Of a stretch of DNA of 64,000 bases, positions 1,262 to 42,377 are shown in pieces. Under the pieces are notes generated by a model. It was not told the origin of the DNA. It was given only the letters and a program-made list of their open reading frames with translations, and searched no databases. Numbering within the stretch: the stretch's first letter is position 1; every line of letters starts with the position of its first letter. The stretch comes from Candidatus Amesbacteria bacterium RIFCSPLOWO2_01_FULL_48_25. Its GTDB lineage: Bacteria > Patescibacteriota > Microgenomatia > CAZETR01 > Amesbacteraceae. The stretch spans positions 47,388 to 111,387 of the forward strand of contig MEXN01000007.1 of the NCBI GenBank assembly GCA_001773695.1, given 5' to 3'. The position numbers and the translations under genes are program-made.

Positions 1262-2053
1262 TTAGCGGTTGGGGGAAGTTTTAGATGAAGTCAGATTCCA
1301 AAACCAAGACAGTGAGTAAAAAAGGAATAGACCCAGACCCAGATAGTTTAGAAATGCGTTGGGAGAGAGGGAGTTAACGGCGGAAACTAAGAGGGGTAAA
1401 ACCGAAGCGTAGATGGTGAGTTTGAAAAAAGTGAGATAGGGCAAGGGGCGGTGAGTGAAACGGCTGATTAGCCAAAATAATCCGGCCCATAAACTGAAGG
1501 AGGATAAACGCAAACTCCAAAAAAATAAAGAAAATGTGAGTGCCCCCACAATGAGTACTGATAAGCCAATGGCCCAAGCGCGTAAAGAGTGTCGGCTGAG
1601 CCAAAAAACCAAATCCGACTTGGAGAGAGAAAAATCACCTACATTTTTGAGAGGCTGAATACGAGTAGAGCTGTCTTGGGATTTGGAAACAATCCGGTCG
1701 CGAAGTACCAATATCCCTGCTGAAAAATCATTAAGCTGGTCTTCGGTACCGGACGGATCTAAAATAATGGCAAAGTCGGAATTGCCCCAGGTGACGGGCG
1801 TGGGTTGGGTAGTGGAAATTTGGTCGTTTTTAATGGCAATGTCGAATTGAGGAACATTAGTCTCTATGAGACGGGGGAGTTGAGGGACGTAGTAAGTAAT
1901 CAGGGAGATGCCAAAAACTATGACGATGACGGCCAAAAGAAGAATATATTTGGTCCAGTACCATAGCACCTGGCGAAGTGATCTGGTGGAAATGACCTTG
2001 CCATAATACTTGTCCTGGAGACTGGTTAAGGTTTCACGAAATGTGGCTAGCAC
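1262..2053 (-). CDS. Hypothetical polytopic membrane protein
   Basis: 263-aa ORF with several hydrophobic segments. No family recognised. Confidence 0.45.
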   Translation of the reverse strand: MLATFRETLTSLQDKYYGKVISTRSLRQVLWYWTKYILLLAVIVIVFGISLITYYVPQLPRLIETNVPQFDIAIKNDQISTTQPTPVTWGNSDFAIILDPSGTEDQLNDFSAGILVLRDRIVSKSQDSSTRIQPLKNVGDFSLSKSDLVFWLSRHSLRAWAIGLSVLIVGALTFSLFFWSLRLSSFSLWAGLFWLISRFTHRPLPYLTFFKLTIYASVLPLLVSAVNSLSPNAFLNYLGLGLFLFYSLSWFWNLTSSKTSPNR

Positions 2054-2092
2054 CGTTTAATTCTAGACTGAGGTAGGGTAAAATACAAATAC

Positions 2093-2163
2093 CGGGGCGG
2101 AGTTTGACGGTAGAACGCGCGCATGGGGTGCGTGTAGAGGCAGTTCAATTCTGCCCGCCCCGA
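2093..2163 (+). tRNA. tRNA-Pro (anticodon GGG), 71 nt, no encoded CCA
   Basis: Hand-folded cloverleaf. Acceptor stem CGGGGCG/CGCCCCG gives a C1-G72 pair with A73 discriminator, as in bacterial tRNA-Pro. D-arm GTTT/GAAC carries GG in its loop. Anticodon stem CGCGC/GCGTG has loop ATGGGGT with U33 and G37. T-arm GGCAG-TTCAATT-CTGCC is canonical. G8 and G14 are non-canonical. Confidence 0.5.
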
Positions 2164-2220
2164 CTGGTTAGCGTTTGGGGGATTGTTCTTCGACTGCGCT
2201 CAGGACTGCAGATTGTAATT

Positions 2221-2631
2221 TTATCGTTTTGGACTTTGCTTTTTGCGGCGGCTCTTGCCGCCCATGCCGACCATCCGCCTTTGGCGAACTCTGGAATCCC
2301 GGGTGAGAAGACCGAGTTTTCGCAAAGGAGATTTATATTCGGCTTTGAGGGAGGAGATAGCCCGGGCGATGCCTAGTGTGAGAGCGTCCAACTGGCCAGT
2401 AGAACCCCCGCCACGGATTTTGGCTTCGACCGAATAGGTTTTGCTTTTGGGTAGGACGGACAGGGGGGAAGTGGCTCGGGTTTTGGCGATGATGGATGAG
2501 AAATAACGGTCCGCCGGCCGGCCGTTGACCACGATACTCCCGTCACCGGCTATTAGCCTGACTTGGGCTACGGCTTCCTTGCGCCGGCCGACGGCTGTGG
2601 CATAAATCTTATTTTTTAAATTGTTTGGCAT
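2221..2631 (-). CDS. rpsI: 30S ribosomal protein S9
   Basis: GRRKEAVAQVRL... with the basic ...SRRKKQSPKR C-terminus. Start trimmed to the second Met so it does not overlap rplM. Confidence 0.9.
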   Translation of the reverse strand: MPNNLKNKIYATAVGRRKEAVAQVRLIAGDGSIVVNGRPADRYFSSIIAKTRATSPLSVLPKSKTYSVEAKIRGGGSTGQLDALTLGIARAISSLKAEYKSPLRKLGLLTRDSRVRQRRMVGMGGKSRRKKQSPKR

Positions 2632-3025
2632 ATGGGTGGTCGGGGCCGGGATAGACATGAAGATGTTTTAACATGCGGTCGTGAAGCTTGTTTTTGGGGA
2701 GCATACCTGATATGGCGTGGGTGATAATCCTGTCGGGGTGGGAAGCTTGGACTTGGGCGTAGGTTAAGACCACCATGCCTCCCGGATAGCCAGAGTGACG
2801 GTGGTAGAGTTTTTGGGCAGATTTCCGGCCGGTGACTTTGACTTTGGCGGCGTTTATTATGACCACGTGGTCACCCATGTCCAGGTGGCGAGAGAAATCT
2901 ACCCTATTTTTGCCCATGAGCAGCCTGGCTATTCTCGTCGCCATGCGGCCTAAAACCTGACCATTGGCGTCTACTAAATGCCAATCACGGTTTATTTGGG
3001 ATAATTTGGGGGAAAGAGTGGGCAT
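2609..3025 (-). CDS. rplM: 50S ribosomal protein L13
   Basis: N-terminal motif DWHLVDANGQVLGRMATRIARLLMGK is the L13 family signature. Confidence 0.9.
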   Translation of the reverse strand: MPTLSPKLSQINRDWHLVDANGQVLGRMATRIARLLMGKNRVDFSRHLDMGDHVVIINAAKVKVTGRKSAQKLYHRHSGYPGGMVVLTYAQVQASHPDRIITHAISGMLPKNKLHDRMLKHLHVYPGPDHPYAKQFKK

Positions 3026-3444
3026 TACTTAGTTGATCGCTTAATTTTCGCCGGGGCAATTGGTTTGGAGGTAGATGGAGGTGTGGCTTTGGGAGAAGTG
3101 AACTCCATACGAACCATGGGGGCATTGTCGCCTGTTCGGTTGCCAAGCTTAGTTAGACGTAAATACCCGCCGGGGCGAGTTTTGAAACGGGGAGCAATTT
3201 CGTGGACCAGTTTTTCTACCAGGGACTTGTCGGTGACTACTGCCTCGATTGCACGGACGTCGGTCAAAGATCCGTGTTTGGCTTTGGTGATGAGATTTTC
3301 GATCAGGGATACGGCGGCTTTGCCTTTGGCTTCGGTAGTTTCTATCGCCTCGGAACGAATAAGTGCCCCGGCGAGCCCCCTTAGAAGAGCTTGCCGCTGA
3401 TTAGTATCGCGATTGAGTTGACGGCCGAAAACGTTGTGGCGCAT
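3025..3444 (-). CDS. rplQ: 50S ribosomal protein L17
   Basis: MRHNVFGRQLNRDTNQRQALLRGLA... is a typical L17 N-terminus. Confidence 0.9.
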   Translation of the reverse strand: MRHNVFGRQLNRDTNQRQALLRGLAGALIRSEAIETTEAKGKAAVSLIENLITKAKHGSLTDVRAIEAVVTDKSLVEKLVHEIAPRFKTRPGGYLRLTKLGNRTGDNAPMVRMEFTSPKATPPSTSKPIAPAKIKRSTK

Positions 3445-3449
3445 GTCAT

Positions 3450-4376
3450 TTAGAGTACAAAGTCAAACCCTCTCTCCTTGAGGGCGATTTCAATAATTTT
3501 GACTGATTTGGAACCTAAGTTCTTGACTTTGGCTAGTTGGGCCTTGGGGAGAGCGGTGAGCTGGGCGACGGTTTCAAGACCCGCTTTTTGGAGAGCGTTG
3601 GCTATACGGGTGGGAAGATCCAATTCCTCGACCGATAGGGACGACCCTGTGGAGGAGGATGGAGATGAGCCTACTGAAGGGCCGGATACGGAAGAGGGAG
3701 TCTGGGGGTTGGCGATGGCCGAAAAATATCCTACTAAAGTCTGGGAAGCTTGGGACAAAGCTCTCGCGGGGGAAACGGTGCCGTTGGTCGTAATATCGAG
3801 AATCAGCTTGTCAAAATTGGTAAAACGGCCAACGCGGGTAGCCTCGACGGAAAAGTTGACCCGGGTGACGGGGGTGAAAGTGGCGTCTGTCGGGACGGCC
3901 CCGACAGTCGTCGATTTTCGGTCATCGGCGGGGGAATAACCCAAACCGGCTTCGACAGTGGCTACTAGTTCCAGTTTGGCAGATTTGTCCGAAAGATGGG
4001 CAACAATTGCTTGGGGATTGGCAATAATTACGTCCGGAGGGAGTTGGAAATCACCGGCTTTAACTTGCCCTGGGCCTTTGGCTGAAAGTTCTATTTGAAC
4101 GGGTGAATCGCCGGAATACTGGAGACGGATTTGCTTTAGGTTCAGGATAACTTGAACCACATCCTCCCTGACCCCGGGGAGAGTGGTGAATTGGTGGTTG
4201 GTGCCGGTTATATTGACGGAGGTGATGGCTGCCCCAGGAATAGAAGTGTAAAGTACCCGGCGAAGCGAATTTCCCAATGTATGCCCGTAACCTTGAGGCA
4301 GGGGCTCGATAGTAAAACGGGCTTGGGTCGGGTGATCGTCTGATTGGATAGTGAATTGGGGGGTGAGTGAGATCAT
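3450..4376 (-). CDS. rpoA: DNA-directed RNA polymerase alpha subunit
   Basis: 308 aa. NTD carries GYGHTLGNSLRRVLY. CTD helix-hairpin-helix region is present. Confidence 0.95.
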   Translation of the reverse strand: MISLTPQFTIQSDDHPTQARFTIEPLPQGYGHTLGNSLRRVLYTSIPGAAITSVNITGTNHQFTTLPGVREDVVQVILNLKQIRLQYSGDSPVQIELSAKGPGQVKAGDFQLPPDVIIANPQAIVAHLSDKSAKLELVATVEAGLGYSPADDRKSTTVGAVPTDATFTPVTRVNFSVEATRVGRFTNFDKLILDITTNGTVSPARALSQASQTLVGYFSAIANPQTPSSVSGPSVGSSPSSSTGSSLSVEELDLPTRIANALQKAGLETVAQLTALPKAQLAKVKNLGSKSVKIIEIALKERGFDFVL

Positions 4377-4428
4377 ATGGGCCTTTTATCGGCAATATGT
4401 CATCATTTTGATGCCATATATCCGATTT

Positions 4429-5028
4429 TCATCGGCTATAAAACTCCACGATTAACTGTTCATCTATAGGGCTGTCGACATCGGTACGAGATGGGAGCGT
4501 GGTTACAACGCCTACTGCTCCCTGACGATCCAGCCAGGCAGGAAGATGGTGGTCGGTACTTTGGAGAAGAGCACTTACTACTGGCGTTTGCATCGCCTTG
4601 GGGCTTAAGGAAATTTGCTGCCCCGTACTAATTTGGAAAGAGGGAATGGTGACTCTTTTCCCATCCAGTCGAACGTGACCGTGGGAAACTAATTGCCGCG
4701 CCATGGCGCGAGTGGGAGCCATTCCCAGACGGTAGACGACGTTGTCCAGGCGCGTTTCTAATAAACGCAGGAGGACTTCGCCTGTCTTGCCGCGAACTTT
4801 AGTGGCCTTCTCAAAGTACTTGCGGAATTGCCGTTCCATTATACCATAAATTCTCTTCGTTTTCTGCTTTTCCCTGAGCCTGACTGCATAATCTGACGGA
4901 CGCCTGGTGCCTTTGGGGCCGTGTTGACCCGGGGGTTGGGTGGCGCGGCGAAGCTTGTTACCACGGCCGAATAGGTCGAAACCTTCACGGCGGGAGAGGC
5001 GATTTTTGGGTTCAGTATAGCGGGCCAT
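4429..5028 (-). CDS. rpsD: 30S ribosomal protein S4
   Basis: MARYTEPKNRLSRREG... followed by an S4 domain. Confidence 0.95.
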   Translation of the reverse strand: MARYTEPKNRLSRREGFDLFGRGNKLRRATQPPGQHGPKGTRRPSDYAVRLREKQKTKRIYGIMERQFRKYFEKATKVRGKTGEVLLRLLETRLDNVVYRLGMAPTRAMARQLVSHGHVRLDGKRVTIPSFQISTGQQISLSPKAMQTPVVSALLQSTDHHLPAWLDRQGAVGVVTTLPSRTDVDSPIDEQLIVEFYSR

Positions 5029-5066
5029 AAATTATCCTTCGACTTCGCTCAGGATGACACTACGTG

Positions 5067-5543
5067 TCACCATCTAAAATGGGCGAAGGCTTTGTTGGCT
5101 TCGGCCATGCGGTGGGTATCTAACTTTTTCTTGACAGCAGCGCCTGAGTTGGCTGCGGCTTCGACTATTTCGGCGCAGAGTTTTTGGGCAAAAGTGGGAT
5201 AAGTGCTGTTGGGACGGGCGAGAGTAGCCATCAATAGCCAACGAATGGCTAAGGAGTCACGGCGATCTGCCCGGACCGGAGTGGGAACCTGGTAGGCCGC
5301 ACCACCGATTCTTCGGGAGCGGACTTCCATTTGGGGCCGGATATTTTCAATTGCAGCGAGAAAGAGGGGCAAGGGTTCTTGTTTGGTTTGAACTCCAAGG
5401 AGTTCAAATGCCTTATAAACTTGTTTTTGGGCCACGGCTTTTTTACCGTCACGCATGGAGCGATTGATCAACTGGGTAACTAGGGAATGATGATAAATCG
5501 GGTCTGGGACAGTCAATTTTTTGGGGGCTGGTTTACTTCTCAT
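5067..5543 (-). CDS. rpsG: 30S ribosomal protein S7
   Basis: S7 family sequence runs from MRSKPAPKK... The ORF-track N-terminal extension overlaps rpsL, so the start is placed at the internal Met. Confidence 0.9.
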   Translation of the reverse strand: MRSKPAPKKLTVPDPIYHHSLVTQLINRSMRDGKKAVAQKQVYKAFELLGVQTKQEPLPLFLAAIENIRPQMEVRSRRIGGAAYQVPTPVRADRRDSLAIRWLLMATLARPNSTYPTFAQKLCAEIVEAAANSGAAVKKKLDTHRMAEANKAFAHFRW

Positions 5544-5550
5544 ATTTTTT

Positions 5551-5985
5551 TTAGGATGCCGTGGCGACACTGGGGCCGACGGTTGCTTTGGTGCCGTAGC
5601 GAGAACGGCCTTGCTTACGGTTTTCGACTCCGATGGCGTCGTACTTGCCACGAACGATATGGTATTTAACTCCGGGTAAATCTTTAACTCGACCGCCACG
5701 AATCATAACGATGGAGTGCTCGGCTATGGTGTGACCGATACCGGGGATGTAGGCTGTGACCTCACTAGAATTGGAAAGACGAACACGGGCGATCTTTCGA
5801 AGGGCCGAATTGGGTTTTTTGGGAGTCATTGTTTTGACTATAGTAACTACTCCTCGTTTAAAAGGATTGAAACCTTCGGTGAAACGGCGGGACTTGGAAT
5901 TGAACGACCGACGGAGGCTGGTAGCCTTGATTTTTTTGGTCTTGGCCTTTCTGCCGTGACGGATAAGTTGATTGATTGTCGGCAT
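5551..5985 (-). CDS. rpsL: 30S ribosomal protein S12
   Basis: [12 protein letters not shown]... and KKPNSALRK motifs. Confidence 0.95.
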
Positions 5986-5996
5986 ATGAGAGGGGA

Positions 5997-8900
5997 TTAT
6001 TGTACCAATTTGGCTCGCTCGGGGCTAGTTGGTATAAGCCGGCCAATAATGACGTTTTCTTTGAGTCCAATTAAAGGATCGATCCGGCCTTCGATGGCCG
6101 CGTCGGCCAATTGGGAGGTGGTTTCGATAAACGAGGCGGAGGATAACCAGGATCCGGTTTTGAGGGCGGCCCGGGTGATGCCCAAAACTACAACCTGGGC
6201 AGTGGCTGGTTCGCCGCCGGCGGCTAAAATACGGGCATTTTCTACCTCGAAGCCAGTGCGGTCGATAATATCTCCGGGCAGAAGAGTAGTATCTCCTTGG
6301 GAGAGGACCCGAACCCGGTCGCTCATCTTTCTGACAATTACTTCGAAATGTTTGTCGTGGATGGGCACGCCCTGGGACTCGTATACCAATTGAATCTCTT
6401 CGATGAGGTATTCCTGGGCACCCCTGAGGCCACGAATTTCCAATACTTCTTTAATATCTAATGAACCGGTGGCAAGTTGAGTTCCTGAGTCGACCAGATC
6501 TCCATCGGCTACTTTAAGCTCGGCAGTAAGGGGAATAATATATTCGCGTTCGTCGACAGGTTTGACTGAAGTATTTCGAATCCTAACCTTGTAACCGGAA
6601 TCGGTCTGGGTGACCTCGACCCGCCCGGAAATTTCAGCCAGAGGAGCTACTAATTTGGGAGTCCGGGCTTCGAACAGTTCTTCGATTCTGGGTAGCCCTT
6701 GGGTGACGTCGATGCTGCCTACGGACAGACCACCCCGTTTACCGTGTAAGGTCATTTGTGTTCCCGGCTCGCCGATACTTTGGGCGGCAATGACGCCAAC
6801 CGGGTCGCCAATTGATGCTTGGGCCATGGCACCTAATTGCCAGCTATAGCAGGTAGCGCAAAGGCCGTATTTGGCGTTACATGTTAAAGGCGAGCGAACA
6901 ATTACTTCATTTACTGACTCGGTGTTGATCTGAGATACCTTGTCCTCGTCAAGAACCGTCCCTGCCGGAATGAGGACTTTTTTAGACTTGGGAGAAACTA
7001 TGTCGGAAGCCGTAACGCGGCCAAAAATCCGGGCCGGGAAAGACTTGGCCCTACGGCCGGACCGGAAAATGGAGAGACCGGAAGTGGTACCGCAGTCTTC
7101 CCGGCGGATTATGGCGTCGTGGGCTACGTCTACCAAGCGACGGGTGAGATATCCGGCGTCGGCAGTACGAATAGCAGTGTCGGACAAGCCCTTGCGTTCG
7201 CCACGAGCGGCAGAAACATATTCGAAAGTGGAAAATCCCTCCCGATAGTTACTTTTTAGAGGCAGGTCGACGATCCGGCCCAAGGGGTCAACCACCAGGC
7301 CGCGCATGGCGGAGAGTTGCTTGACCTGTTCACGGGAAACCTTACCCACCTGAGCATCCACCATGAGATGAATGGGGTTAGTTTGATCAATTAATTTCCA
7401 GGTATTGTCGGCCAATATATCCGTGGTTTCCAGCCAGGTTCCTTGGGTGAGGCGTTTTTTCTCCTCGGCGGTAATTAACCCTAATGAAAAGTTTTGTTCG
7501 ATTTCAGCAACTTTGCGATTGGCCCCCGAAATAATCTCGGTTTTGTCCGGCGAAATAACACAGTCGGTAATGCTGACCGAAAGACCGGCTATGGTTCCGG
7601 CCCAGAAACCTAAAGATTTAATATCGTCGATCAGCTTGACGATTACTCCGGGATCGGTCTCGCCGAAGAGGCGGAAAGCCTTGTTGAAAATGGCCACGAC
7701 GGTGGAACGGCGGACGGGTTCGTTTACAAAACGCAGAGGTTCGGGTAGAACCTCGTTAAAGAGCAAGCGGCCAACAGTGGTTTCCACTAAGTGACCCTCT
7801 TGACGGACAAGAACTAGTTGGCGCAATTTGAGAATACCGGTGTGGTAGGCCAGAATGGCTTCCGCGTCTGAGGCCATGGGGGTGGAAGCACTTGGAATTT
7901 GGGAATCTACCGAAGTGAGGTAGTAATTGCCCAAAGCCATTTCTTTGGTGGAAGGAATAGTGATAGGCGTACCGTCGGCCGGTTTTCGAAGATTATTTTG
8001 AGGCATCATGGTGGCAATCACTTCGGCGATAGCCCCCTGGCTTAAAGGAATATGAACGGCCATTTGATCACCGTCGAAATCGGCGTTAAAACCGGGACAA
8101 ACACAGGGGTGGATGCGGATGGCCGAACCCTCAATCAAAATGGGATAAAAGGCCTGGATAGATAACTTGTGCAGGGTAGGGGCCCGATTTAGTAGCACCG
8201 GGTGGTCGCGGGTGATGTCTTCCAAAATATCAAAAACTTCGGGGGGGCGGGTTTCTAGCAAATTCTTGGCTGATTTGACGTTTGGCGCCAGACCCTTAAC
8301 AATCATTTGGCGTAAGACAAACGGCTTGAACATTTCCAGGGCCATGTCCTTGGGGAGTCCACATTGATTGATCTTGAGCTCCGGGCCGACGACGATGACC
8401 GAACGGCCGGAGTAGTCCACCCGCTTGCCCAAAAGGTTTTGACGGAAGCGGCCCTGCTTGCCCCGCAACATGTCCGAAAGAGATTTGGAATGAGCGCTGG
8501 TCGGCAGACGAGTGACCCGAGTGTGTTGGGAAGAGTCGATTAGAGCATCGACGGCTTCCTGGAGCATGCGTTTTTCATTTCTCAAGATTATTTCCGGGGC
8601 TCCCAAATCAATGAGGTGCTTAAGGCGGTTGTTGCGATTTATGACTCGGCGATATAGATCGTTTAGGTCACTGGTCGCAAAGCGGCCCCCGGAGAGCTGA
8701 ACCATGGGACGCAGGTCGGGAGGAATAACAGGTAAGATCTTGATTATCATCCAGACGGGATCGATGCTGGCGCGGCGCAAGCCGTCCACGACTCGAAGGC
8801 GTTTGGTGGCTTTAATGTGGCGTTGTCCGGTAGAATTGGCTACTTCCTCCCTAAGGGTGGCTGAAAGGCTGCCGAGATCTAGAGTTCTGATAACATCCAA

Positions 8901-9743
8901 AATGGCTTCAGCGCCCATGCCAACGCCCACGAATTCCAATGCGTCGTATTCATTGAGTTTGGTGTATTCCTCTTCGGTGATCAGGGAGCCGACGTGCAAG
9001 CTCTGAATAATTTCTATCAGCCGGTCGTAAAGATCGGAAATTTTCTCGGTTTCTGCTAATTCTTGGTCTTTGAGAGCTTGTGTTTGCTGGCGGAATTTGA
9101 GAGAGAGCTGGTCTGTAGCCATGACTTGGGCATCGATATTTAAGGCTTGGCCTGAAAGCTCGGCTACATCTTTTTGTTCTTCTTTTCGGAGAGCAGTTGC
9201 TTGGGCCGTTAGTGATTTATGGATTTCATCTTTTTTTCGACTAGCATCTTTGGCTAATCGTTCGATAGCTAGGTCTTTTTGCTTGGAATCGCAGGAGGTA
9301 ACGATGTACTGGGCAAAGTAGATAACTGATTCCAAAGCTTTGGGGGAGACGTCCAAAAGCAGGCTTAGGCGACTAGGGGCTCCTTTGAAATACCAAACGT
9401 GGGCTACCGGGGAAGCTAGGGTAATATGACCCATGCGCTCGCGGCGAACCCGAGAGTGGGTGACTTCCACACCACATTTGTCACAGGTGATGCCTTTGTA
9501 TCGAATGCGTTTGTATTTACCACAGTAACATTCCCAGTCTTTGACCGGACCAAAAATGCGTTCGTCAAATAGTCCGTCTTTTTCGGGCCGAAGAGTGCGG
9601 TAGTTGATGGTTTCCGGCTTGGAGATCTCGCCATATGACCAAGACTTGACCACATCGGGAGAAGCCAATTTGAGTTGGAGCGACTGAAAGTCGGTAACGT
9701 TTTTGAAAGTGTCCTGATGATCTGGATTAATTTTGGCTGGCAT
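5997..9743 (-). CDS. rpoC: DNA-directed RNA polymerase beta' subunit
   Basis: 1248 aa. Zn-binding CxxC...CxxC region near the N-terminus. The NADFDGD catalytic motif is present. Confidence 0.97.
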
Positions 9744-9748
9744 AATTT

Positions 9749-12700
9749 TTAGACGTCCGGTTGGTCTTTAACAGTTACTTTGTCATCTACAGCTAAGGTG
9801 GACACCTGAGTGGCAGTTGTATCGTCGGCGATATTTAAGGGAGGGGTGGCGGCCGTGTCATCGGTAACCTTGGTTTGTACCCCGATGGGTACCACTTGAA
9901 GACTGAGGCTCTGCAACTCCTTGACCAGAACATTAAATGATTCCGGAACGGTTGACGTGGGGATGTCCGTGCCCTTGACGATGGCCTCGAAAGCTTTGGC
10001 ACGGCCGATAACATCGTCGGACTTGATGGTGAGCATTTCTTGAAGAGTGTGGGCGGCTTTGTGGCTCTCCAAGGCCCAAACTTCCATTTCTCCCAGTCGC
10101 TGACCGCCCATTTGAGCCTTGCCTCCCAAGGGTTGTTGAGTCACCAGTGAATATGGACCAGTGGAACGGGCATGAGTTTTGTCTTCCACCATGTGATGGA
10201 GTTTGAGAATATAGCCCACCCCAACCACCGTCGGTTGTTCATAAGGCAACCCGGTGCGACCGTCGTGGAGAGTGATTTTCCCGCTGGTTGGCAAATTGCT
10301 GGCTTGCATTTCGATTGCGATTTGATCCTCAGAAACTTTTTCAAACGCCGGGATGGAGACTTTGCGATGCTGTTTGTCCATCGCCCAGCCCAAACGGGCT
10401 TCCAGAAGTTGGCCCAAATTCATACGGGCCAGAACTGATAAGGGGGAAATCATTATATCTATGGGGGTTCCGTCGGGAAGGTAGGGCATGTCTGCCACGG
10501 GAACGATTTTACTGATGACTCCCTTGTTGCCGTGGCGTCCAGCCAGTTTGTCCCCGACACTGATTTTTCTGATTTGGGCAACCTTGACAATCACCCGCTG
10601 GTTGACTCCAGGGGGGAGCTCGTCACCGGCTTCTTTACTAAGTATATGTATATCGACTACAATCCCCCGCTCTCCGTGGGGCATGCGCAAAGAAGTGTCC
10701 CGGACGTCCCTGGCCTTCTCACCAAAAATGGCTCTGAGCAGGCGCTCCTCGGCCGAAAGTTCGGTCTCTCCTTTGGGGGCAATTTTGCCAACTAAGATAT
10801 CATTTGGGCTGACTTCAGAGCCGATGGCGACAATACCTTGAGCGTCCAGATGAGCTAGATAATTTTCACCGATATTGGGGATGTCACGGGTAAGTTCTTC
10901 CGGACCGAGTTTGGTGTCTACCACGTCTGCTTCATGCTCCTCGATATGAATGGAGGTTAAGAGATCTTCGGTGACTAATCTATCCGAGATAACAACAGCG
11001 TCCTCGTAGCCCAAGCCATCGTAAGAGTGATAGGCGATGACTAGGTTTTGGCCGAGGGCAATTTCGCCGTTTTGGCAGGAGGGTCCGTCAATAATGAGTT
11101 GGCCCTTGGCGATTTTCTGGCCGGTTGTGACCGTGGGAACTTGATTGAAGCAGGAACTTTGGGCCGTCCGTTTGAACTTGGTCAGATAGTAAATTTCGGT
11201 GTCGCCTTTGGAAACTATATTTTCAGTGTCCGGCGGAGGAGAGGCCGGCTTTTTATCCAGTTTAACAATGATTTTGGAAGCATCCACAAAAGAAACCGTG
11301 CCGGCATGACGAGCATAGACACACCAGTCCATGGCGGCTGCTACTGTTTGTTCCATGCCAGTGCCTACAACGGGGCTCGCGGGCTTAAGTAAAGGAACAG
11401 CTTGGGTTTGCATGTTGGCGCCCATCAGTGCCCGATTGGCAGCGTCGTTGGCTAGAAAAGGAATGAGAGAGGCGGAAGTGCCAACCACTTGGCGAGGTAC
11501 AGCATCTATATATTCCACCTGGCTAGCGGGTCCTTCGGAAAAAACGCCTTGATACCGGATGGGAAGCCACTCGTCTTGGATATAACCCTTTCCGTCCACT
11601 CGGACGTCAGAATGGGAGATGCGAAAGTTGGCCTCGTCGTCGGCAGTAAAATAGACAATTTCATTACCCAATCTGACTCCAGTGGTATCGGAAATTAGTT
11701 TTCGGTAAGGTGCTTCCAGAAAGCCATAGTCATTGACCCGGGCATAGAGGGCCATATAAGTGACAAGACCGATATTGGCGCCTTCTGGCGAACGGACCGG
11801 ATCGATACGACCATATTGGCTGCTATTAACGTCACGGATACTAAATGAGGCGCGTTCCCGGGTAATGCCCCCCCGGCCCATGACGGTCAGACGGCGGAGG
11901 TGATCGATTTCAGATAAGGGGTTGGTTTGTTCCAGAATCTGGGACAGTTGAGAGCTTCTAAAAAACTCGTTGATGGAGGCGATAACAGGACGAGCGTTGA
12001 CTAACATAGCCGGGACGACTAAATCTTCGGGCGAGACTAAACTCATCTTTTCTTTGATAGCCCGCTCGAGGCGCAGAAGCCCGTCTCTAAATGCGGTTTG
12101 GTTGACCAGCTCGCCTACCCGGCGGATGCGGCGATTACCCAGGTTGTCTATATCGTCAATGTGGCCCTGATCATTTTGTAGGCCAATAAGGTAGGAAATG
12201 GTGGCGACTAGATCGTCCCTGGTCAAAACGGTTTTATCTGAGGTGAGGTCCAGGCGTTTATTGAGTTTATACCTACCCACCTGGCCCAAATCATAGCGGC
12301 GAGGGTTGAAAAAGAGATCATAAAGGAGGCGTTGGGCGTTTTCCAGAACAATCGGCTCCCCGGGGCGCATTTTCTTGTATATTTCGATCAGGGCTTCCTC
12401 GGTAGTTTTGGTAGTATCTTTGCCCAGCGTCGCTTCCAGATAATGGTGATTGGCGTTTGTATCTACAGCGGCAAACAGGCTGGTTAGTTGGTCCGGATCA
12501 GATAGACCCATGGCCCGCAGGAGAGTGGTAACTACAAACTTGCGCCGGCGGTCGATACGAACAGAAATGACATTTGACCTAGAAATTTCGAACTCCAGCC
12601 AGGTGCCACGGATAGGGCGAAGTTCAGCAGTATGGAGCATCCGGCCTGAGGCGGCATCTAGTTCGGCGCCAAAATAGGCCCCTGGGGAACGGACGACTTG

Positions 12701-13087
12701 GTTGATGACCGCCCGCTCTACCCCATTGACTATAAATGTGCCCCGGTCGGTCATCTGGGGTAGTTCGCCTAAGTAAACTTCGCCGGAAGTGGTTTTGCCG
12801 GTTTGCTTATTGGTAAGCTTGGTCGTGACACGCAGGGCTGCCGAGTAAGTAAGTCCTTTTCGAAGGGCTGTCTGGGGGGTGATTTTGGGCTTTTCGATCG
12901 AGTGAGTGGAAAATTCCAGTAACCAATTTTTACTGGTAAAATCTTCGATGGGGGAAATTTCAGCTAGATTTTGAGGAATGCCCTTGGTCAAAAACCAGGC
13001 CCACGAGTCGAGCTGAACCCGGGTGAGGTTGAGAGTTGGGAGATTTGTGTATTGTCTCCCCCAATATATGCGCTGGTTGGCCGTCAT
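9749..13087 (-). CDS. rpoB: DNA-directed RNA polymerase beta subunit
   Basis: 1112 aa with conserved rpoB blocks throughout. Sits immediately upstream of rpoC. Confidence 0.97.
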   Translation of the reverse strand: MTANQRIYWGRQYTNLPTLNLTRVQLDSWAWFLTKGIPQNLAEISPIEDFTSKNWLLEFSTHSIEKPKITPQTALRKGLTYSAALRVTTKLTNKQTGKTTSGEVYLGELPQMTDRGTFIVNGVERAVINQVVRSPGAYFGAELDAASGRMLHTAELRPIRGTWLEFEISRSNVISVRIDRRRKFVVTTLLRAMGLSDPDQLTSLFAAVDTNANHHYLEATLGKDTTKTTEEALIEIYKKMRPGEPIVLENAQRLLYDLFFNPRRYDLGQVGRYKLNKRLDLTSDKTVLTRDDLVATISYLIGLQNDQGHIDDIDNLGNRRIRRVGELVNQTAFRDGLLRLERAIKEKMSLVSPEDLVVPAMLVNARPVIASINEFFRSSQLSQILEQTNPLSEIDHLRRLTVMGRGGITRERASFSIRDVNSSQYGRIDPVRSPEGANIGLVTYMALYARVNDYGFLEAPYRKLISDTTGVRLGNEIVYFTADDEANFRISHSDVRVDGKGYIQDEWLPIRYQGVFSEGPASQVEYIDAVPRQVVGTSASLIPFLANDAANRALMGANMQTQAVPLLKPASPVVGTGMEQTVAAAMDWCVYARHAGTVSFVDASKIIVKLDKKPASPPPDTENIVSKGDTEIYYLTKFKRTAQSSCFNQVPTVTTGQKIAKGQLIIDGPSCQNGEIALGQNLVIAYHSYDGLGYEDAVVISDRLVTEDLLTSIHIEEHEADVVDTKLGPEELTRDIPNIGENYLAHLDAQGIVAIGSEVSPNDILVGKIAPKGETELSAEERLLRAIFGEKARDVRDTSLRMPHGERGIVVDIHILSKEAGDELPPGVNQRVIVKVAQIRKISVGDKLAGRHGNKGVISKIVPVADMPYLPDGTPIDIMISPLSVLARMNLGQLLEARLGWAMDKQHRKVSIPAFEKVSEDQIAIEMQASNLPTSGKITLHDGRTGLPYEQPTVVGVGYILKLHHMVEDKTHARSTGPYSLVTQQPLGGKAQMGGQRLGEMEVWALESHKAAHTLQEMLTIKSDDVIGRAKAFEAIVKGTDIPTSTVPESFNVLVKELQSLSLQVVPIGVQTKVTDDTAATPPLNIADDTTATQVSTLAVDDKVTVKDQPDV

Positions 13088-13189
13088 TTGTAATCGTTAG
13101 TTAAACGAAGCACCCGAGGCAGGGGGCATTGGGACGCAAAAAACCAGGCGACAATGGCCGCCTAGGGTTATATATTCAGTTTGGTTATA

Positions 13190-14164
13190 TCAGGGCTTGA
13201 GATATTTGTCAACGTTTATATTGTGCTCGGTCAAGGTTTTGGCGTAATAAGTTACTCCGTCTGTTCCAGCAAGATAATACCAATAAGGCGAATCAACTGG
13301 AGCTAGGACAGCCTGGATGGATGCTAGGCCGGGATTGGCTATGGGGTGAGGAGGTAAGCCCACATTTTGGTAGGTATTAAAAACTGAGGAGAGTTTAGTA
13401 TCAAAGACCGGTTGCCAGAATTGACAGTTGACAGTTAACAGTTGACAGTTGGCGCTGTCACGGGCGTATTGAACGGTGGCATCGATTTGCAGCGGCCAGT
13501 TGTTTTTCAGGCGCTTTTGGATGATACCTGCGATTATCGGCCTGTCGACTGCCAGTTTAGCCTCGCGTTCTACCAGCGAAGCGATAATAAGCAAGTCTTG
13601 TTGGGAAGGAATTGAAAGGCCGGATTTGCGACGGAAATTTTCGGTCATGATGCGGATAACATCGGAGGCTTGAGATGTGGGAGAAAACCGATATGTATCG
13701 GGGAAAAGCTGCCCTTCTATCGAGGCGGTTTGGTAAACAAACTCAAGGGTGTCAAAATTTGGCAGATCACTACTTACGCGGAGGGCAATTTGTTCCCGGC
13801 GCCAGCCTTCAGGAAGAGTAATTTTGACGTCTTGGGGTCCGGTGGCGAGAGCCGCAAAAATTTCCTTGGCTGAAAGAGCCGGTGAGAGGGAGTATGAACC
13901 GGGACGAAGGCGGCTATCTAACCCCGTAAATTTAAGATAAACACGAGCGGCTAAAATGGAGCGGATGAGACCAGTAGTATGAAGACTGGAAACTGTCGTG
14001 AGAGCGGGTTGGTTTGGGGCAATATTAAAAGTTACTGAAGGGGAACCAGACGATCCTGCTGGGGAAAGCTGGGAGAAAATCCAGAAGTAGGAAAAGGTAA
14101 TTGAGGCTGCGGCGCAAAATCCTAAGAAGAGGGCAAGGATTAGGCTGAGGTTTTTTCCGGTCAC
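13190..14164 (-). CDS. mltG: Endolytic murein transglycosylase MltG (YceG family)
   Basis: N-terminal TM segment, then a YceG-like domain with the EGQLFPDTY motif. Confidence 0.85.
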   Translation of the reverse strand: MTGKNLSLILALFLGFCAAASITFSYFWIFSQLSPAGSSGSPSVTFNIAPNQPALTTVSSLHTTGLIRSILAARVYLKFTGLDSRLRPGSYSLSPALSAKEIFAALATGPQDVKITLPEGWRREQIALRVSSDLPNFDTLEFVYQTASIEGQLFPDTYRFSPTSQASDVIRIMTENFRRKSGLSIPSQQDLLIIASLVEREAKLAVDRPIIAGIIQKRLKNNWPLQIDATVQYARDSANCQLLTVNCQFWQPVFDTKLSSVFNTYQNVGLPPHPIANPGLASIQAVLAPVDSPYWYYLAGTDGVTYYAKTLTEHNINVDKYLKP

Positions 14165-14397
14165 ACTTCCTCAAACAAGGCGCGGCGATATTTTCCAGAT
14201 TGGGCTTCCTTGACAAAAATCCGGCCGCATTTTTTGCAGGTAATTTTTTCGGTATCACCCTTTTTTTCTAATTTCCCAGTGGAAAGTTCCACACCACAAC
14301 CTACACAACGACCTTGAGACAAAAGCCATGCCTGAACGGGAGCGATGACGTTTTTGAACACTAGGATTACTTTACTATGTGGAATCCTGGGAGTCAA
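14161..14397 (-). CDS. Small zinc-ribbon protein (TTG start)
   Basis: Two CxxC pairs: CVGCG ... CKKCG. 78 aa. Overlaps the mltG start by 4 nt. Confidence 0.4.
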   Translation of the reverse strand: MTPRIPHSKVILVFKNVIAPVQAWLLSQGRCVGCGVELSTGKLEKKGDTEKITCKKCGRIFVKEAQSGKYRRALFEEV

Positions 14398-14404
14398 CTT
14401 AAAT

Positions 14405-14443
14405 ACCTCACCCCTGACCCCTCTCCTAAATTTAGGAGAGGGG
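14405..14443 (-). repeat. Conserved junction element, copy 1: ACCTCACCCCTG plus the perfect 26-nt palindrome CCCCTCTCCTAAATTTAGGAGAGGGG. The ruvX stop codon lies in the loop.
   Basis: A second, similar copy lies at 21413-21450. Both are situated between co-directional minus-strand genes. Confidence 0.8.
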
Positions 14444-14821
14444 AACTGAGGGGGAGAGGTTAGAATCGAGCCAAGATTGCAAGATTATGGCTGCGGCTAC
14501 AGCGTGCTCGTTGGTTTTGCGTCTTTTTTGTGAAGTATGTAGGAGAGATTGACGGGAGTCGTGAGATGAAAGAGTCTCATCAACAATATTTAATGTTAAA
14601 TGTTTAATGTCTAATGCTTTGATAAATTCTTCAAAATCTTTCTTTAACTTTTTATCCGGGCGGCCGATAATTATTGTTCGGATGGAATTATCATCGACTA
14701 ATTGTTTAATTAACTGAACTGCGGATTTGGTAGGTAAAGTGGTCAACGGCTCGGCCAAAGGGCCAGTAGCCAGAGCAACTCCGACGTGTTTTAGCCCATA
14801 ATCGAGACCCAGGCAATTCAT
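14432..14821 (-). CDS. ruvX: Putative pre-16S rRNA nuclease / Holliday-junction resolvase-like YqgF (RuvX)
   Basis: LGLDYGLKHVGVALA N-terminal motif of the YqgF/RNase H-like family. Confidence 0.8.
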   Translation of the reverse strand: MNCLGLDYGLKHVGVALATGPLAEPLTTLPTKSAVQLIKQLVDDNSIRTIIIGRPDKKLKKDFEEFIKALDIKHLTLNIVDETLSSHDSRQSLLHTSQKRRKTNEHAVAAAIILQSWLDSNLSPSVPLS

Positions 14822-14826: not shown

Positions 14827-15498
14827 TTAGTTTACCAGTTCGGCGGTGGCTACGAAGCGGCGCCAGTAAGTGCCTAGGGGGACGCAGGTGACGAGGGTTA
14901 GCTGCCTTTTCGATTTGTTTTGAGTCAAAACGTCGATTTGAGACGGAGCGACTTCGCGAGTCGATTTGATCAGATATTTGTAAGTGACTGAGTCGTATTT
15001 AACTGTAATTTGGGCGCCAACTTTAATCTCGGGCAGGGGATTAAAAATGGTCAGGGGATTTCCTTCCCGATATAAATAGGGCGAGGACGAGTGGCCGAAA
15101 ATGACGACGTTTCCAGATTCTCCGGGAAATGCCGTACCGGGAAAATGAACAGCGCCTTTTTTTAAGTCGACGCTATTAACTGAAACCGGAATTCCGTTTA
15201 GACCTATATCTGGAATCGATAAAGCAAAACTGGTTGATTTGGCTGCGGACGGCTTCTGGGGGGTGGACGCCGGAAACCAGTTGGTGGCTTGGGTGAGATC
15301 GGCTGTGGGCATCCCTTGGGGATAAATAATCAGGAACGGCCGGCGACCGGAGGGAACCGTGGGGTCGATCAGGCGGGACTCGGGTGAAAAATAATATTTT
15401 ACCTGGGCGGAAATTATAGGAAAAGTGGCGAGGCCAAGCAAAGCCAGCCCTAGGCTGAAAAGCACGAAACCCAGCGCCTTTGGACGGATAAGAGTCAT
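14827..15498 (-). CDS. Sortase family transpeptidase
   Basis: N-terminal TM segment. VIFGHS supplies the catalytic His. TLVTCVP supplies the TLxTC catalytic Cys motif. Confidence 0.8.
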   Translation of the reverse strand: MTLIRPKALGFVLFSLGLALLGLATFPIISAQVKYYFSPESRLIDPTVPSGRRPFLIIYPQGMPTADLTQATNWFPASTPQKPSAAKSTSFALSIPDIGLNGIPVSVNSVDLKKGAVHFPGTAFPGESGNVVIFGHSSSPYLYREGNPLTIFNPLPEIKVGAQITVKYDSVTYKYLIKSTREVAPSQIDVLTQNKSKRQLTLVTCVPLGTYWRRFVATAELVN

Positions 15499-17574
15499 TT
15501 ATGGAGTCTGGATCGAGACGGTGATATGTCCAGGGAGACGAGGGAGAAAGACAATGGGGTCCGGCAAGGGTAAGCTATAAGTAATTTGGGCACCAGTGAC
15601 GCCGGGATATGAATTGAGGTGGTTTCTGGCCCAGGCGATATTTTTGCCCGCGATCTGAGAGACAATTTGGCTAGAGTCGACTTGAGGCGTAAACCGGGCA
15701 GAAACATTAGTAAATACCGTATTTTCAGACCCGGTAGAACCACGCACTGAAAAACGATAATTTGTCAACTGCCCCAGTTGATAGTTATCGGGGATTTGAT
15801 CTTGCAACTTTTGCTGGACAAGCTCTTCCAGGTTGGATCTGGATACGACCGGGCTTTGGGCTTTAAGAGTGAGCTTGTAGGTGATTTCATTGGCTTCATC
15901 TCCTGTTTTGTGATTTAATTCTTCAGATGTGGTTTGGCTTGTGAAGGTATCCGGGACCAAGATCTGGTCGGGGGTTAATTCTTCGGTAATTTTGGCTTGA
16001 AGAGCTTCGCGAAGTTGGGACATGAGGGTGGATTTGAGCTGGGAAATATCCTCCTGAGCCACAACCCGAGCTTCCCTACTTGAGCCGCCCGAGAGGGCAG
16101 CCTCATTTTTGGCCACCACGTCCAGCTGAGGATAAGTGCCAACACGAAACTCAGTGCCGGCTGTAAGGTTGCCATCAGAGCCAATTTGAGAAGCGGTGAT
16201 CTTGACTGTGACACGGCCTGGTTGGTAGGAATTGGGGTCGGCGGTACCTGAGGCAGAGGCTACCAAGACGCTTGAGTCGGTTGTGAATTTTAGGCTCGTC
16301 GGGGAAGTCAGCAGCGTGCCCGCGGGTAAGTTTTTGACGGTGCTGGTGCCATTTATTATGGTGACAGATCCGGAAGCTGGCTCGCCAACTACTTTGGATC
16401 CGGTGGTAGGAGCGGATTTGGAATCGGATGCCGAGGTTTGTACAAAACTGCCAGTTGTATCGAATTCGGTTGACAAATCCAGGGGAGAAATTTGCAATTC
16501 GACCTTGGCGGATGGTAGATAAAGCGTAGCTAAAACGAGGGCGGCCAAAATGGTAATTATGCCAATCCCCCAAAAAACTAGCCCGAGACGGGGGAGTGTT
16601 GGCCAAGATATGGTAAATGATGGTAATTTGAATTGAGGAAGTTTTAGCTTTGGCAAAGTAAATCGCTTTGATGCGGGGGAGAGCTCATTTTTGGGAGGAG
16701 GGGGAATGGAGGGAGAAGGCGGGGAATTTGGGTTCGGAGCATTTACTCCGGGAGAAAATCCAAGTTGATCTGGAGAAATTTCTAGCGAAGTTTCTTCTCC
16801 CGTGGTGATTAGACCTATGGCTTGGGCGACTTCGGAACCACCTGCCAGGGCAATGGCCCGAATTACAAAATCTTGGGGTAGGGACTCCACCTTGGGAAAA
16901 TGCAGAAATGGCAATCTGGTTTGGGGGGATTGCCAGGGATGAGAGAGTAATTGTTGGCGAATGCTTTCTAGATCCTGGCTGGAATTGTAAAGCAAAATCC
17001 GAGAGGGGAGCATGTCTGTGGGTAAGAGTCGGGAAATGCCTTCGATAACATCGTCTGTGAGCTTGGGGCTGCGACGGACAGTGTGAGTTCCGGTAATCTT
17101 ACCCAAACGAACCAATGAGACTTCCAGATATCCGGCCCAGAAACCCAAGAGGATGGCCGTGGGGGGGGCATTTTCCTGGCTTTGCAAAAAACGGACGGTG
17201 GCTTCGGGGATAACCACATAACCAACTGGTTTGAGAGCCAGTTTGTCAAAAAGCGGACGCAGTAAATTTACTTTGGCGGGATGGATTTTTTCCGTTTCCA
17301 ACCAATCCGGTAATAGTCCTAAAATGATTTTTTCGGGTTGGGTTTTACCCTGGGGATCGAGGTGGTTGCCTGCGTCTGACAGGCTTTGATCGCTGGCTGT
17401 GACCAAGCTATCAGCAGACGAATCGTCCCAGGCGACGCTGCTTCCTACGGCTATAACTTGAGGCCGATTATTGATGACTGCCCAGACGGCACCTTGCACT
17501 TGGCCGTGGCCAATCTGCAAGGCGAAGAGGTATTCGCGTTTGGGATTGGGGTGATTTAAGAAAGGCAGGGTCAT
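15499..17574 (-). CDS. Large membrane-anchored protein. Cytoplasmic N-domain with a tentative actin/FtsA/PilM-like phosphate-1 motif, Pro-rich linker, one TM segment, Ser/Thr-rich extracytoplasmic domain.
   Basis: 691 aa. The motif LFALQIGHGQVQGAVWAV resembles an ASKHA phosphate-1 motif. The linker is PNPNSPPSPSIPPPP. The TM segment is LGLVFWGIGIITILAALVLATLYL. Confidence 0.5.
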   Translation of the reverse strand: MTLPFLNHPNPKREYLFALQIGHGQVQGAVWAVINNRPQVIAVGSSVAWDDSSADSLVTASDQSLSDAGNHLDPQGKTQPEKIILGLLPDWLETEKIHPAKVNLLRPLFDKLALKPVGYVVIPEATVRFLQSQENAPPTAILLGFWAGYLEVSLVRLGKITGTHTVRRSPKLTDDVIEGISRLLPTDMLPSRILLYNSSQDLESIRQQLLSHPWQSPQTRLPFLHFPKVESLPQDFVIRAIALAGGSEVAQAIGLITTGEETSLEISPDQLGFSPGVNAPNPNSPPSPSIPPPPKNELSPASKRFTLPKLKLPQFKLPSFTISWPTLPRLGLVFWGIGIITILAALVLATLYLPSAKVELQISPLDLSTEFDTTGSFVQTSASDSKSAPTTGSKVVGEPASGSVTIINGTSTVKNLPAGTLLTSPTSLKFTTDSSVLVASASGTADPNSYQPGRVTVKITASQIGSDGNLTAGTEFRVGTYPQLDVVAKNEAALSGGSSREARVVAQEDISQLKSTLMSQLREALQAKITEELTPDQILVPDTFTSQTTSEELNHKTGDEANEITYKLTLKAQSPVVSRSNLEELVQQKLQDQIPDNYQLGQLTNYRFSVRGSTGSENTVFTNVSARFTPQVDSSQIVSQIAGKNIAWARNHLNSYPGVTGAQITYSLPLPDPIVFLPRLPGHITVSIQTP

Positions 17575-31171: not shown

Positions 31172-31190
31172 ACTTTAATGAATTGAGCTA

Positions 31191-31219
31191 TTGTAGCATG
31201 GGGCCGCGGTAGATTTTGG
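31191..31219 (-). repeat. Orphan duplicate of the last 7 codons plus stop of the nrnA-like gene (the intact tail is at 32465-32493), 28 of 29 nt identical
   Basis: On the minus strand both copies encode KIYRGPMLQ*. Confidence 0.85.
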
Positions 31220-31262
31220 TCGGTTTGACATAAGTCTATATGCAGTGTAGTATCCGGCTTAA

Positions 31263-31718
31263 ATGTTGGATAGATTGAAAACGGAGGACACACGGCTCAA
31301 AGAGGCAATTGCTTTGTACGAGCCGGTGAGGGTTTCCTTCGCGAGGCTTATGGAACAAGAGGGAAAGAGGATAGACCTGGGGTGGGGACATACTCTTATT
31401 ACTGGTGCTGGGAGCAGATATGTGTGGGAGTGTTCAGGGGTTCAAGTGGGTGGTGTGAAAATATCAATGGAGACGAGTGACGATGATAGGTTTGGTGGAG
31501 ATTTAAGAAGTGCGACACTTCACGTTGTGGTGTCTAGGGAATGGGCTAGTGAGAAGTTTGATCTGGAACCGACTGGGCATGTTGGAAGCGGGAGACTAAA
31601 CTCTAGGAGTGTGGGGAAGATGGCGGAAGATTTGAAAGAGCTGGCGGATGAAATTAACCAATACTTAAATCCTCGCAAAAACATTCATAGGAATTATGGA
31701 GGGGCAGGGTCGAGGTAG
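31263..31718 (+). CDS. Hypothetical protein
   Basis: 151-aa ORF on the opposite strand inside a minus-strand block. No family recognised. Confidence 0.4.
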   Translation: MLDRLKTEDTRLKEAIALYEPVRVSFARLMEQEGKRIDLGWGHTLITGAGSRYVWECSGVQVGGVKISMETSDDDRFGGDLRSATLHVVVSREWASEKFDLEPTGHVGSGRLNSRSVGKMAEDLKELADEINQYLNPRKNIHRNYGGAGSR

Positions 31719-31726
31719 ATCTAGCT

Positions 31727-31785
31727 AAAGTTCTTTTGCTAGATATTGCACCAGACATATACTCTTCCTGTGGGCGGATCTTCTC
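31727..31785 (-). repeat. Degraded duplicate of the 3' end of the 76-aa gene (intact copy 32232-32408). It carries an internal ~114-nt deletion bounded by a CTAGAT microhomology.
   Basis: An 18-nt block and a 41-nt block are identical to the 32232-32249 and 32368-32408 segments of the intact copy. Confidence 0.85.
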
Positions 31786-31834
31786 AACCAGCTTTCGTTA
31801 GTTCTCTTGGACAGGTGTGATTGTATCACCAAAG

Positions 31835-32179: not shown

Positions 32180-32229
32180 TGCGCAATTATAGGATATTTT
32201 TGGTTGTTGTCAATTATTGCAACCTGGAG

Positions 32230-32460: not shown

Positions 32461-32461
32461 T

Positions 32462-42374: not shown

Positions 42375-42377
42375 TGG

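Follow-up and report, generated by a model that had tools for sequence, protein, structure and literature searches.

We analysed the arrangement of the RNA polymerase and ribosomal protein genes in a 64,000-nucleotide (nt) stretch of the genome of Candidatus Amesbacteria bacterium RIFCSPLOWO2_01_FULL_48_25 (positions 47,388 to 111,387 of contig MEXN01000007.1; hereafter the window). The data point, with a probability of about 0.85, to an old event in the Candidatus Amesbacteria lineage of Microgenomates, a rearrangement of the rpoBC-str-S10-spc-alpha supercluster that defines the clade and by which the fusA...rpsK segment was inverted and moved between dnaK and dnaJ. The minus strand of the window reads rpoB-rpoC-rpsL-rpsG and, after a 38-nt gap, rpsD-rpoA-rplQ-rplM-rpsI, and the fusA...rpsK block lies about 24 kb away on the opposite strand with a methyltransferase gene after rpsK. 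This layout had been described in an initial annotation of the window, and it was confirmed by open reading frame (ORF) lists and family scans. Comparison with outgroup loci bore out the further proposal that the canonical gene string is broken at rpsG/fusA and at rpsK/rpsD and that the block has been relocated and inverted. Both of these breakpoints are present, but their description was incomplete: a third one, between dnaK and dnaJ, had been missed, and at the rpsK end the actual partner is dnaK, through its 3′ end, with the methyltransferase gene as a variable element in between.

Gene order of the fused string and of the relocated block

Gene identities were assigned from the ORF lists and from NCBIfam and Pfam scans, and every gene named in the initial annotation was recovered in this way. 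The fused string, entirely on the minus strand, starts with rpoB (9749-13087; RNA polymerase β, 1112 amino acids (aa); the identical gene of locus L001 carries Pfam RNA_pol_Rpb2 domains), followed 5 nt downstream by rpoC (5997-9743; β′, 1248 aa), and then by rpsL (5551-5985; S12; TIGR00981, 195 bits) and rpsG (5067-5543; S7, 158 aa; TIGR01029, 186 bits). The rpsG ORF can be extended to 5699, and public gene calls, among them that of L001, use the 158-aa version. Beyond the 38-nt spacer (5029-5066) come rpsD (4429-5028; S4; NF003717, 258 bits), rpoA (3450-4376; RNA polymerase α; NF003519, 305 bits), and the tail of the string, formed by rplQ (3025-3444), rplM (2609-3025) and rpsI (2221-2658). 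The rpsD-rpoA-rplQ contiguity of the canonical alpha operon is retained. The step from rpsG to fusA on the same strand, characteristic of the canonical str operon, is missing, with rpsD after rpsG and fusA on the plus strand at 37542; the step from rpsK to rpsD of the alpha operon is also missing, with the methyltransferase gene and then a convergent dnaK after rpsK.

The relocated block (37542-54363, plus strand) contains fusA (37542-39692), three small inserted ORFs, tuf (40622-41800), rpsJ (41805-42125), and the S10 and spc genes up to rpsM (53595-54020) and rpsK (54022-54363). After rpsJ, the order on the plus strand is rplC-rplD-rplW-rplB-rpsS-rplV-rpsC-rplP-...-rplN-rplX-rplE-...-rpsH-rplF-rplR-rpsE-rplO-secY-adk-map-infA-rpmJ-rpsM-rpsK, so that the S10-spc order from rpsJ to rpmJ is kept on one strand, with rpmD (L30) absent between rpsE and rplO. 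The starts of rpoB and fusA are 24.4 kb apart, on opposite strands.

At its rpsK end, the block is joined to a heat-shock operon. This junction (54364-55544) consists of an 18-nt spacer, a gene for a PF10672-type S-adenosylmethionine-dependent, RlmI/K/L-like methyltransferase (54382-55233, plus strand), and 311 nt up to the 3′ end of the convergent dnaK. The dnaK-grpE-hrcA genes (55545-58570, minus strand) constitute the upstream part of the interrupted operon. The dnaJ gene (35967-36842, minus strand; 291 aa), located directly downstream of dnaK in outgroups, lies at the other end of the block, divergent from fusA and separated from it by the intergenic region 36843-37541. In the window, dnaJ is not found directly 3′ of dnaK, since dnaK ends at 55545, dnaJ starts at 36842 and the block lies between them. 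The block sits exactly inside the hrcA-grpE-dnaK/dnaJ array.

Distribution of the junctions among relatives

The S11 and elongation factor G (EF-G) proteins of the window were 100% identical to those of Candidatus Amesbacteria bacterium RIFCSPHIGHO2_01_FULL_48_32, and the nearest other S4 proteins, with about 71% identity, were those of Amesbacteria and of a 'Microgenomates group' genome. Look-ups of the S4 context revealed the nine-gene string spanning the rpsG-rpsD junction also in Amesbacteria GW2011_GWB1_47_19, in Microgenomates Gr01-1014_16 and in a relative with 65% S4 identity. GTDB was then scanned by S4 alignment using one genome per species, and the window proteins were compared by tblastn with the 80 loci returned. 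The rpsG-rpsD adjacency was found in two of these loci, belonging to an Amesbacteria metagenome-assembled genome (MAG) and to a mislabelled MAG (S4 identities of 67% and 60%, respectively). The order rpsM-rpsK-rpsD-rpoA was present in 71 of them, including Woyke-, Davies-, Levy-, Pace-, Beckwith- and Dojkabacteria, GWA2_44_7 and UBA1400, and a solitary rpsD in seven (six Bacilli and one MAG labelled Deltaproteobacteria). Across the clade, the rpsG-rpsD spacers measured 3, 6, 6, 29, 38 and ~65 nt and had no common sequence. In a neighbour-joining tree based on S4 and RpoA (495 columns), the rpsG-rpsD genomes formed a single clade in all 200 bootstraps, nested within Microgenomates that keep rpsK-rpsD, which indicates that the arrangement arose once.

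The other two junctions were followed through look-ups with S11 and EF-G and through a DnaK-seeded scan of metagenome contigs analysed by tblastn. Two relatives showed rpsK, the methyltransferase gene and the convergent dnaK-grpE-hrcA genes as in the window, and in a third one a 171-aa ORF replaces the methyltransferase gene. The inverted rpsK-rpsM-map-adk-secY end was located directly after dnaK in all 19 informative loci with at least 82% DnaK identity and in the three look-up loci; dnaJ followed dnaK in none of these 22 in-clade loci. The methyltransferase gene was missing in eight in-clade DnaK loci, so its presence varies within the clade. Among outgroup loci with 59-66% DnaK identity, dnaK-dnaJ adjacency was found in 34 of 50 and ribosomal genes after dnaK in none of the 50. 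One of the outgroup loci, L124, reads hrcA-grpE-dnaK-dnaJ-nusA-infB-..-pnp, which is the minus-strand order of the window without the block.

Regarding the third junction, an Amesbacteria relative (L091) has infB-nusA-dnaJ divergent from fusA, and in a more distant clade member (L175) this layout is kept, with three genes added. The near outgroup L092, with 78% EF-G identity, carries the canonical order rpoB-rpoC-rpsL-rpsG-fusA-tuf-rpsJ-rplC.... In Gr01-1014_16, the whole lepA..dnaK-block-dnaJ.. segment is inverted relative to the window, with all three junctions kept, and later rearrangements have occurred within the clade. The three junctions (rpsG/rpsD, rpsK with or without the methyltransferase gene/dnaK 3′ end, and dnaJ/fusA) recurred in every in-clade relative examined. 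Whether the rpsG-rpsD adjacency recurs in a clade had been posed as a question, and it does; the novelty implied by the initial annotation did not hold, as the arrangement is universal in this monophyletic lineage.

By S4 and RpoA, a number of MAGs recorded as 'uncultured Gammaproteobacteria' or 'Pseudomonadales' (L009-L012, L014-L017, L019 and L030) clustered within Microgenomates, and their public taxon labels appear to be wrong.

Origin of the rearrangement

The window derives from a metagenome, and its short, clean intergenic spacers could hide a misjoin, so that a contig chimeric at 5029-5066 and/or 54364-54381, a concern already raised in the initial annotation, has to be weighed. Contigs encoding the exact S4 protein were present in 60 collection blocks. 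The longest 24 of them, coming from ENA and JGI assemblies of different samples and made with different assemblers, were inspected, and all of them carried sortase-ruvX-mltG-rpoB-rpoC-rpsL-rpsG-rpsD-rpoA-rplQ-rplM-rpsI-DUF1189-recA. The identical junction on 24 independently assembled contigs of the same species, together with orthologous junctions in at least five other species, excludes a misassembly, and the GC skew at four-fold degenerate sites showed no compositional break at either junction; the probability of an artefact is negligible. The idea that rpsG-rpsD is ancestral for Microgenomates or for the Candidate Phyla Radiation (CPR), with the canonical order elsewhere being secondary, deserves equally little credit. 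It could draw on the poor coverage of CPR gene order in the literature, and our literature searches on this gene order in Amesbacteria, Microgenomates or CPR found no published account. Against it stand the occurrence of rpsK-rpsD in nine named CPR lineages, in several unnamed ones and in all non-CPR phyla sampled, the nested position of the rpsG-rpsD clade among rpsK-rpsD genomes, and the implausibility of an independent re-creation of the universal order.

A recent strain- or species-specific inversion, which was implicit in the initial annotation, would agree with the later rearrangements that distinguish clade members, such as the inverted segment of Gr01-1014_16. It is opposed by the three junctions common to a monophyletic clade, down to 60% S4 and 82% EF-G identity, and by the composition of the block. 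In every clade member, the coding strands of rpoC through rpsI were C-rich at four-fold sites (-0.1 to -0.8) and those of the block genes were mostly G-rich, whereas in the near outgroup L092 fusA and tuf were C-rich like rpoC (about -0.5 to -0.6). The skew of the block is fully reversed with respect to this canonical outgroup, indicating that synonymous sites have re-equilibrated since the inversion. This, and the spread of the junctions over the whole clade, rules out a recent event, and we consider such an origin extremely improbable. It is also very unlikely, though less remote than the preceding alternatives, that the flanks moved around a stationary block, for instance by a transposition of rpsD-rpoA-rplQ-rplM-rpsI behind rpsG and separate events that brought dnaK and dnaJ to the two sides of the block. 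Gene order reveals only relative rearrangements, and scenarios of this kind are not unique; nevertheless, dnaK and dnaJ are adjacent in 34 outgroup loci, L124 has the order of the window without the block, and the block alone changed its strand composition relative to the near outgroup. Besides, the linkage of rpsI to recA downstream is common to the window and to outgroup L011, which argues that the block moved rather than the flank.

The distribution of the junctions, the outgroup orders and the rpsI-recA linkage altogether show that the fusA-rpsK segment is the piece that moved, leaving its original place and entering, inverted, between dnaK and dnaJ. According to this scheme, in the ancestor of the clade ~17 kb left the rpsG-rpsD interval and ended up in inverted orientation ~25 kb away, where they part dnaK from dnaJ in the hrcA-grpE-dnaK-dnaJ-nusA-infB array. 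Such an inverted transposition would be formally equal to two overlapping inversions with three breakpoints, rpsG/fusA, rpsK/rpsD and dnaK/dnaJ. The flanks would have been resealed as rpoB-rpoC-rpsL-rpsG-rpsD-rpoA-rplQ-rplM-rpsI, and the relocated block would have gained a promoter region of its own beside dnaJ.

Some points weigh against this reading. The move may have gone through two inversions, through a duplication followed by loss or through a direct transposition, and the dnaK array and the rpoBC cluster may or may not have been neighbours already in the ancestor. No repeats or mobile-element remnants were found at the junctions, where matches corresponded to similarity between GTPase-domain paralogues and to chance pairs. 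The metagenomic outgroup loci L092 and L124 were placed by percent identity only. Regarding expression, the putative reading of the resealed string as a single operon draws on spacing, strand and conservation, and a weak promoter-like match (9/12) lies within the rpsG-rpsD spacer.

Transcription signals in the fused string and at the block junctions

All genes from rpoB to rpsI are co-directional, with spacers of 5, 11, 7, 38, 52 and 5 nt followed by two overlaps. The direct sealing of rpsG to rpsD is compatible with the new co-transcription unit that had been suggested for it, and the 3-6-nt rpsG-rpsD spacers of relatives make co-transcription, possibly with translational coupling, the simplest reading. 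On the basis of this layout, the string would be transcribed as one putative unit, which would encode RNA polymerase β, β′ and α together with S12, S7, S4, L17, L13 and S9. Terminator-like sites occurred in the window at chance frequency (19 found vs 16.2 ± 4.4 expected), and none was located in the rpsG-rpsD spacer (5029-5066). The best of them, a minus-strand hairpin of nine pairs, six of them G-C, with a T6 tail (13144-13165), lies between mltG and rpoB and is likely the upstream boundary, or an attenuator, of the rpoB unit.

The rpsG-rpsD spacer contains a short hairpin, a GAAGGA Shine-Dalgarno-like motif and one copy of a 20-nt repeat (5035-5054). A regulatory structure was considered for this spacer and discarded, its predicted fold being no more stable than that of shuffled sequence (z = -0.57). 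The repeat, TCCTGAGCG(A/C)AGTCGAAG(G/A)A on the minus strand, is found at 5035-5054 and again just after rpsI (2186-2205), with 0.01 chance matches expected. It is missing from the rpsG-rpsD spacer of relatives and present in the unrelated loci L011 and L155, and it looks like a small dispersed intergenic repeat. This copy accounts for a spacer longer in the window than the 3-6 nt of relatives.

In the divergent dnaJ/fusA region, a strong sigma70-like site was predicted towards fusA on the plus strand (37279-37308; TTGAGA-18-TATAAT with an upstream TG, 11/12), and a second one towards dnaJ on the minus strand (36883-36855). With the opposite-strand block between them, dnaJ can no longer be co-transcribed with dnaK. 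Rfam scans gave no match in the window at gathering score and none at E ≤ 1 in 1900-14500 and 36800-42600, and in those scans no leader model for autoregulation of the E. coli type (S4/alpha, S7/str and L4/S10) was matched. This result is consistent with the narrow distribution of E. coli ribosomal protein leaders described in PMC3616713.

Within the S10 cluster, rpsJ and rplC are separated by 393 nt (42126-42518). A gap at this position is also present in relatives (720 nt in L091, and a 72-aa ORF in L175). In the window, a strong terminator-like hairpin (42483-42498; AGCGCC-GACG-GGCGCT and then T7) is found in the gap, with promoter-like sites immediately beyond the hairpin, and the gap may represent a transcription boundary or an attenuator within the cluster.

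Insertions in the relocated block

The fusA-tuf adjacency of the canonical str operon is interrupted by a 929-nt gap (39693-40621). The gap holds a PspC-domain ORF (39694-39885, plus strand; Pfam E = 2e-21), a 75-aa ORF (39890-40117, minus strand), and a 129-aa ORF that is rich in Cys, has a hydrophobic N-terminal stretch and matches no family (40181-40570, plus strand). The same position is occupied by an RHH protein in L091 and by two NUDIX proteins and two unknown ORFs in L175, and these different insertions across relatives indicate that the spacer is an insertion hot spot. In Gr01-1014_16, an insertion between rplO and secY (L174, 4120-6504) comprises two genes, one for an AAA_14/DUF4143 ATPase and one for a 362-aa protein in which a J domain is the only domain. 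A split of the spc cluster at this point, suggested by the DnaJ-domain gene before secY, was discarded after a wider look-up, which revealed a two-gene insertion in an intact cluster.

Strand asymmetry and direction of replication

Read on the plus strand over the whole window (1-64000), the GC skew at four-fold sites of plus-strand genes was +0.37 and at those of minus-strand genes +0.53, and intergenic DNA had only +0.11. The asymmetry is unusually strong (about 0.4-0.5 at four-fold sites), follows the DNA strand and not the direction of the genes, and showed no discontinuity within the window. The C-rich strand carries 28 of the 41 scored genes, among them rpoBC, nusA-infB, pnp and dnaK, and, outside the block, nearly all window genes; the entire canonical cluster of the near outgroup is also on the C-rich strand. 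One interpretation would be that the inversion placed the halves of the supercluster on opposite strands of one replichore, and with two clusters so placed one is head-on to replication. We regard it as doubtful that one half has been permanently in this situation throughout the clade. Two options can be considered. Under one of them, RNA polymerase, S12/S7/S4, nusA-infB, pnp and dnaK would be on the lagging strand, and the inversion would have 'rescued' the S10-spc genes to the leading strand. Under the other, the leading strand would be C-rich, contrary to the general bacterial rule. If the G-rich strand is the leading one, most essential genes of the window would be head-on to replication.

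A sharp switch of GC skew, from +0.17 to -0.22, was observed in Gr01-1014_16 on contig k139_528308 (~67.5 kb; L174, ~17700-18100). It coincides exactly with the intergenic region that separates lepA from a divergent rodZ-like gene, with genes pointing away on both sides. No DnaA-box cluster was found at the switch: the 20-kb locus had seven single-mismatch matches vs 4.3 expected, none of them in the switch intergenic region. This switch may mark an origin or a terminus, or else the breakpoint of a recent inversion.

Other features of the window

Upstream of ruvX-mltG-rpoB, the minus strand carries, at 14827-17574, a sortase gene followed by a 691-aa ORF, the only family match of which is a Baseplate_J-like domain (E = 1e-6). 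The rplK-rplA-rplJ-rplL genes are absent upstream of rpoB in this genome. At the other end of the string, rplM-rpsI directly follows rplQ in CPR loci (L010-L020, L039, L045, L046, L066 and L067), from which it follows that the rplQ-rplM-rpsI linkage is older than the Amesbacteria rearrangement. In Chloroflexi-type loci, rplM-rpsI is found ~1.2 kb after rplQ, and in most other phyla it is not nearby. Beyond rpsI, ARAGORN predicted a tRNA-Pro(GGG) on the plus strand (2093-2164) with acceptor, anticodon and T arms and an atypical-looking D arm; this site had no Rfam match at gathering score or at E ≤ 1.

The overlap of rpsE and rplO (49593-50509) leaves no room for rpmD, and the loss of L30 is a known CPR trait. 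The ORFs for L3 and L2 (187 and 246 aa) matched the bacterial family models only in part. The short alanyl-tRNA synthetase and initiation factor 2 of the window, along with the modest scores against bacterial ribosomal protein models and the missing L30, are CPR-like. An affiliation with Saccharibacteria, suggested by these two short proteins and by the sortase, was discarded on the names of the homologues. In the infB-pnp interval, direct repeats lie among ORFs without family matches (31189-32493): the copies of a 41-mer, at 31745 and 32368, are 100% identical, and those of a 31-mer, at 31189 and 32463, are 97% identical. They may reflect a local duplication. A 395-aa ORF on the minus strand (27201-28388), overlapping the start of pnp by ~110 nt, corresponds to the AAA+ module and lid of Lon (Lon residues ~251-571), and the protease domain was not detected in it.

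Discussion

Disruptions of the ribosomal supercluster have been described in Gammaproteobacteria and Bacilli, mostly as disconnections between operons (rpoBC/str and str/S10), with insertions between operons preceding full disconnection and with duplications or successive inversions proposed as mechanisms (PMC8046335). The Amesbacteria case belongs to the same category of events, in a different phylum: genes and internal orders agree, rearrangement has altered the cluster, and insertions of small non-ribosomal genes separate neighbours. This erosion by insertion is represented in the clade by the genes between fusA and tuf, in the window and its relatives, and by those between rplO and secY in Gr01-1014_16. 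Unlike the cases in PMC8046335, the cuts in the window fall within the str operon (rpsG/fusA) and the alpha operon (rpsK/rpsD) as defined in E. coli, the flanks are resealed as a hybrid string, and the excised middle is placed inside another conserved operon.

Separation of rpsD from rpsK is also found in the Bacilli with a solitary rpsD (Lysinibacillus, Planococcus and Solibacillus; L035, L043, L063, L072, L080 and L087). In those genomes rpsD alone has moved and is monocistronic, whereas in the window it remains with rpoA-rplQ-rplM-rpsI and has rpsG as new upstream neighbour. Compared with the widespread hrcA-grpE-dnaK-dnaJ operon, the window keeps hrcA-grpE-dnaK in order, followed in the same orientation by dnaJ-nusA-infB, and differs by a 17.7-kb opposite-strand block between dnaK and dnaJ. 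In archaea, the corresponding clusters are rpoB-rpoA...-rps12-rps7-EF2 and rps13-rps4-rps11-rpoD-...-rpl13-rps9. The fused string resembles this layout in having RNA polymerase subunit genes beside those for S12/S7 and S4, and rplM-rpsI after the cluster of the α-like subunit. Since the Amesbacteria order derives from the bacterial canonical order, the resemblance concerns layout only and not shared ancestry.

The three shared breakpoints constitute a clean, well-polarised rare genomic change that marks the Amesbacteria clade within Microgenomates, and they are usable as a synapomorphy where CPR sequence phylogenies are noisy. Pipelines for binning or marker trees that use the syntenic ribosomal block should expect rpsD, rpoA and rplQ away from rpsK in this clade. 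Even the most conserved gene string of bacteria can be cut inside its str and alpha operons, and the dnaK operon can be cut as well, without such changes being purged. In E. coli, assembly of the 30S subunit starts with two proteins, S4 and S7, and the clade offers a natural experiment in which the genes for the three core subunits of RNA polymerase lie in one putative operon with those for S4 and S7. Altogether, the event is ancient and clade-wide, and represents an instructive variant of gene order rather than a one-off.

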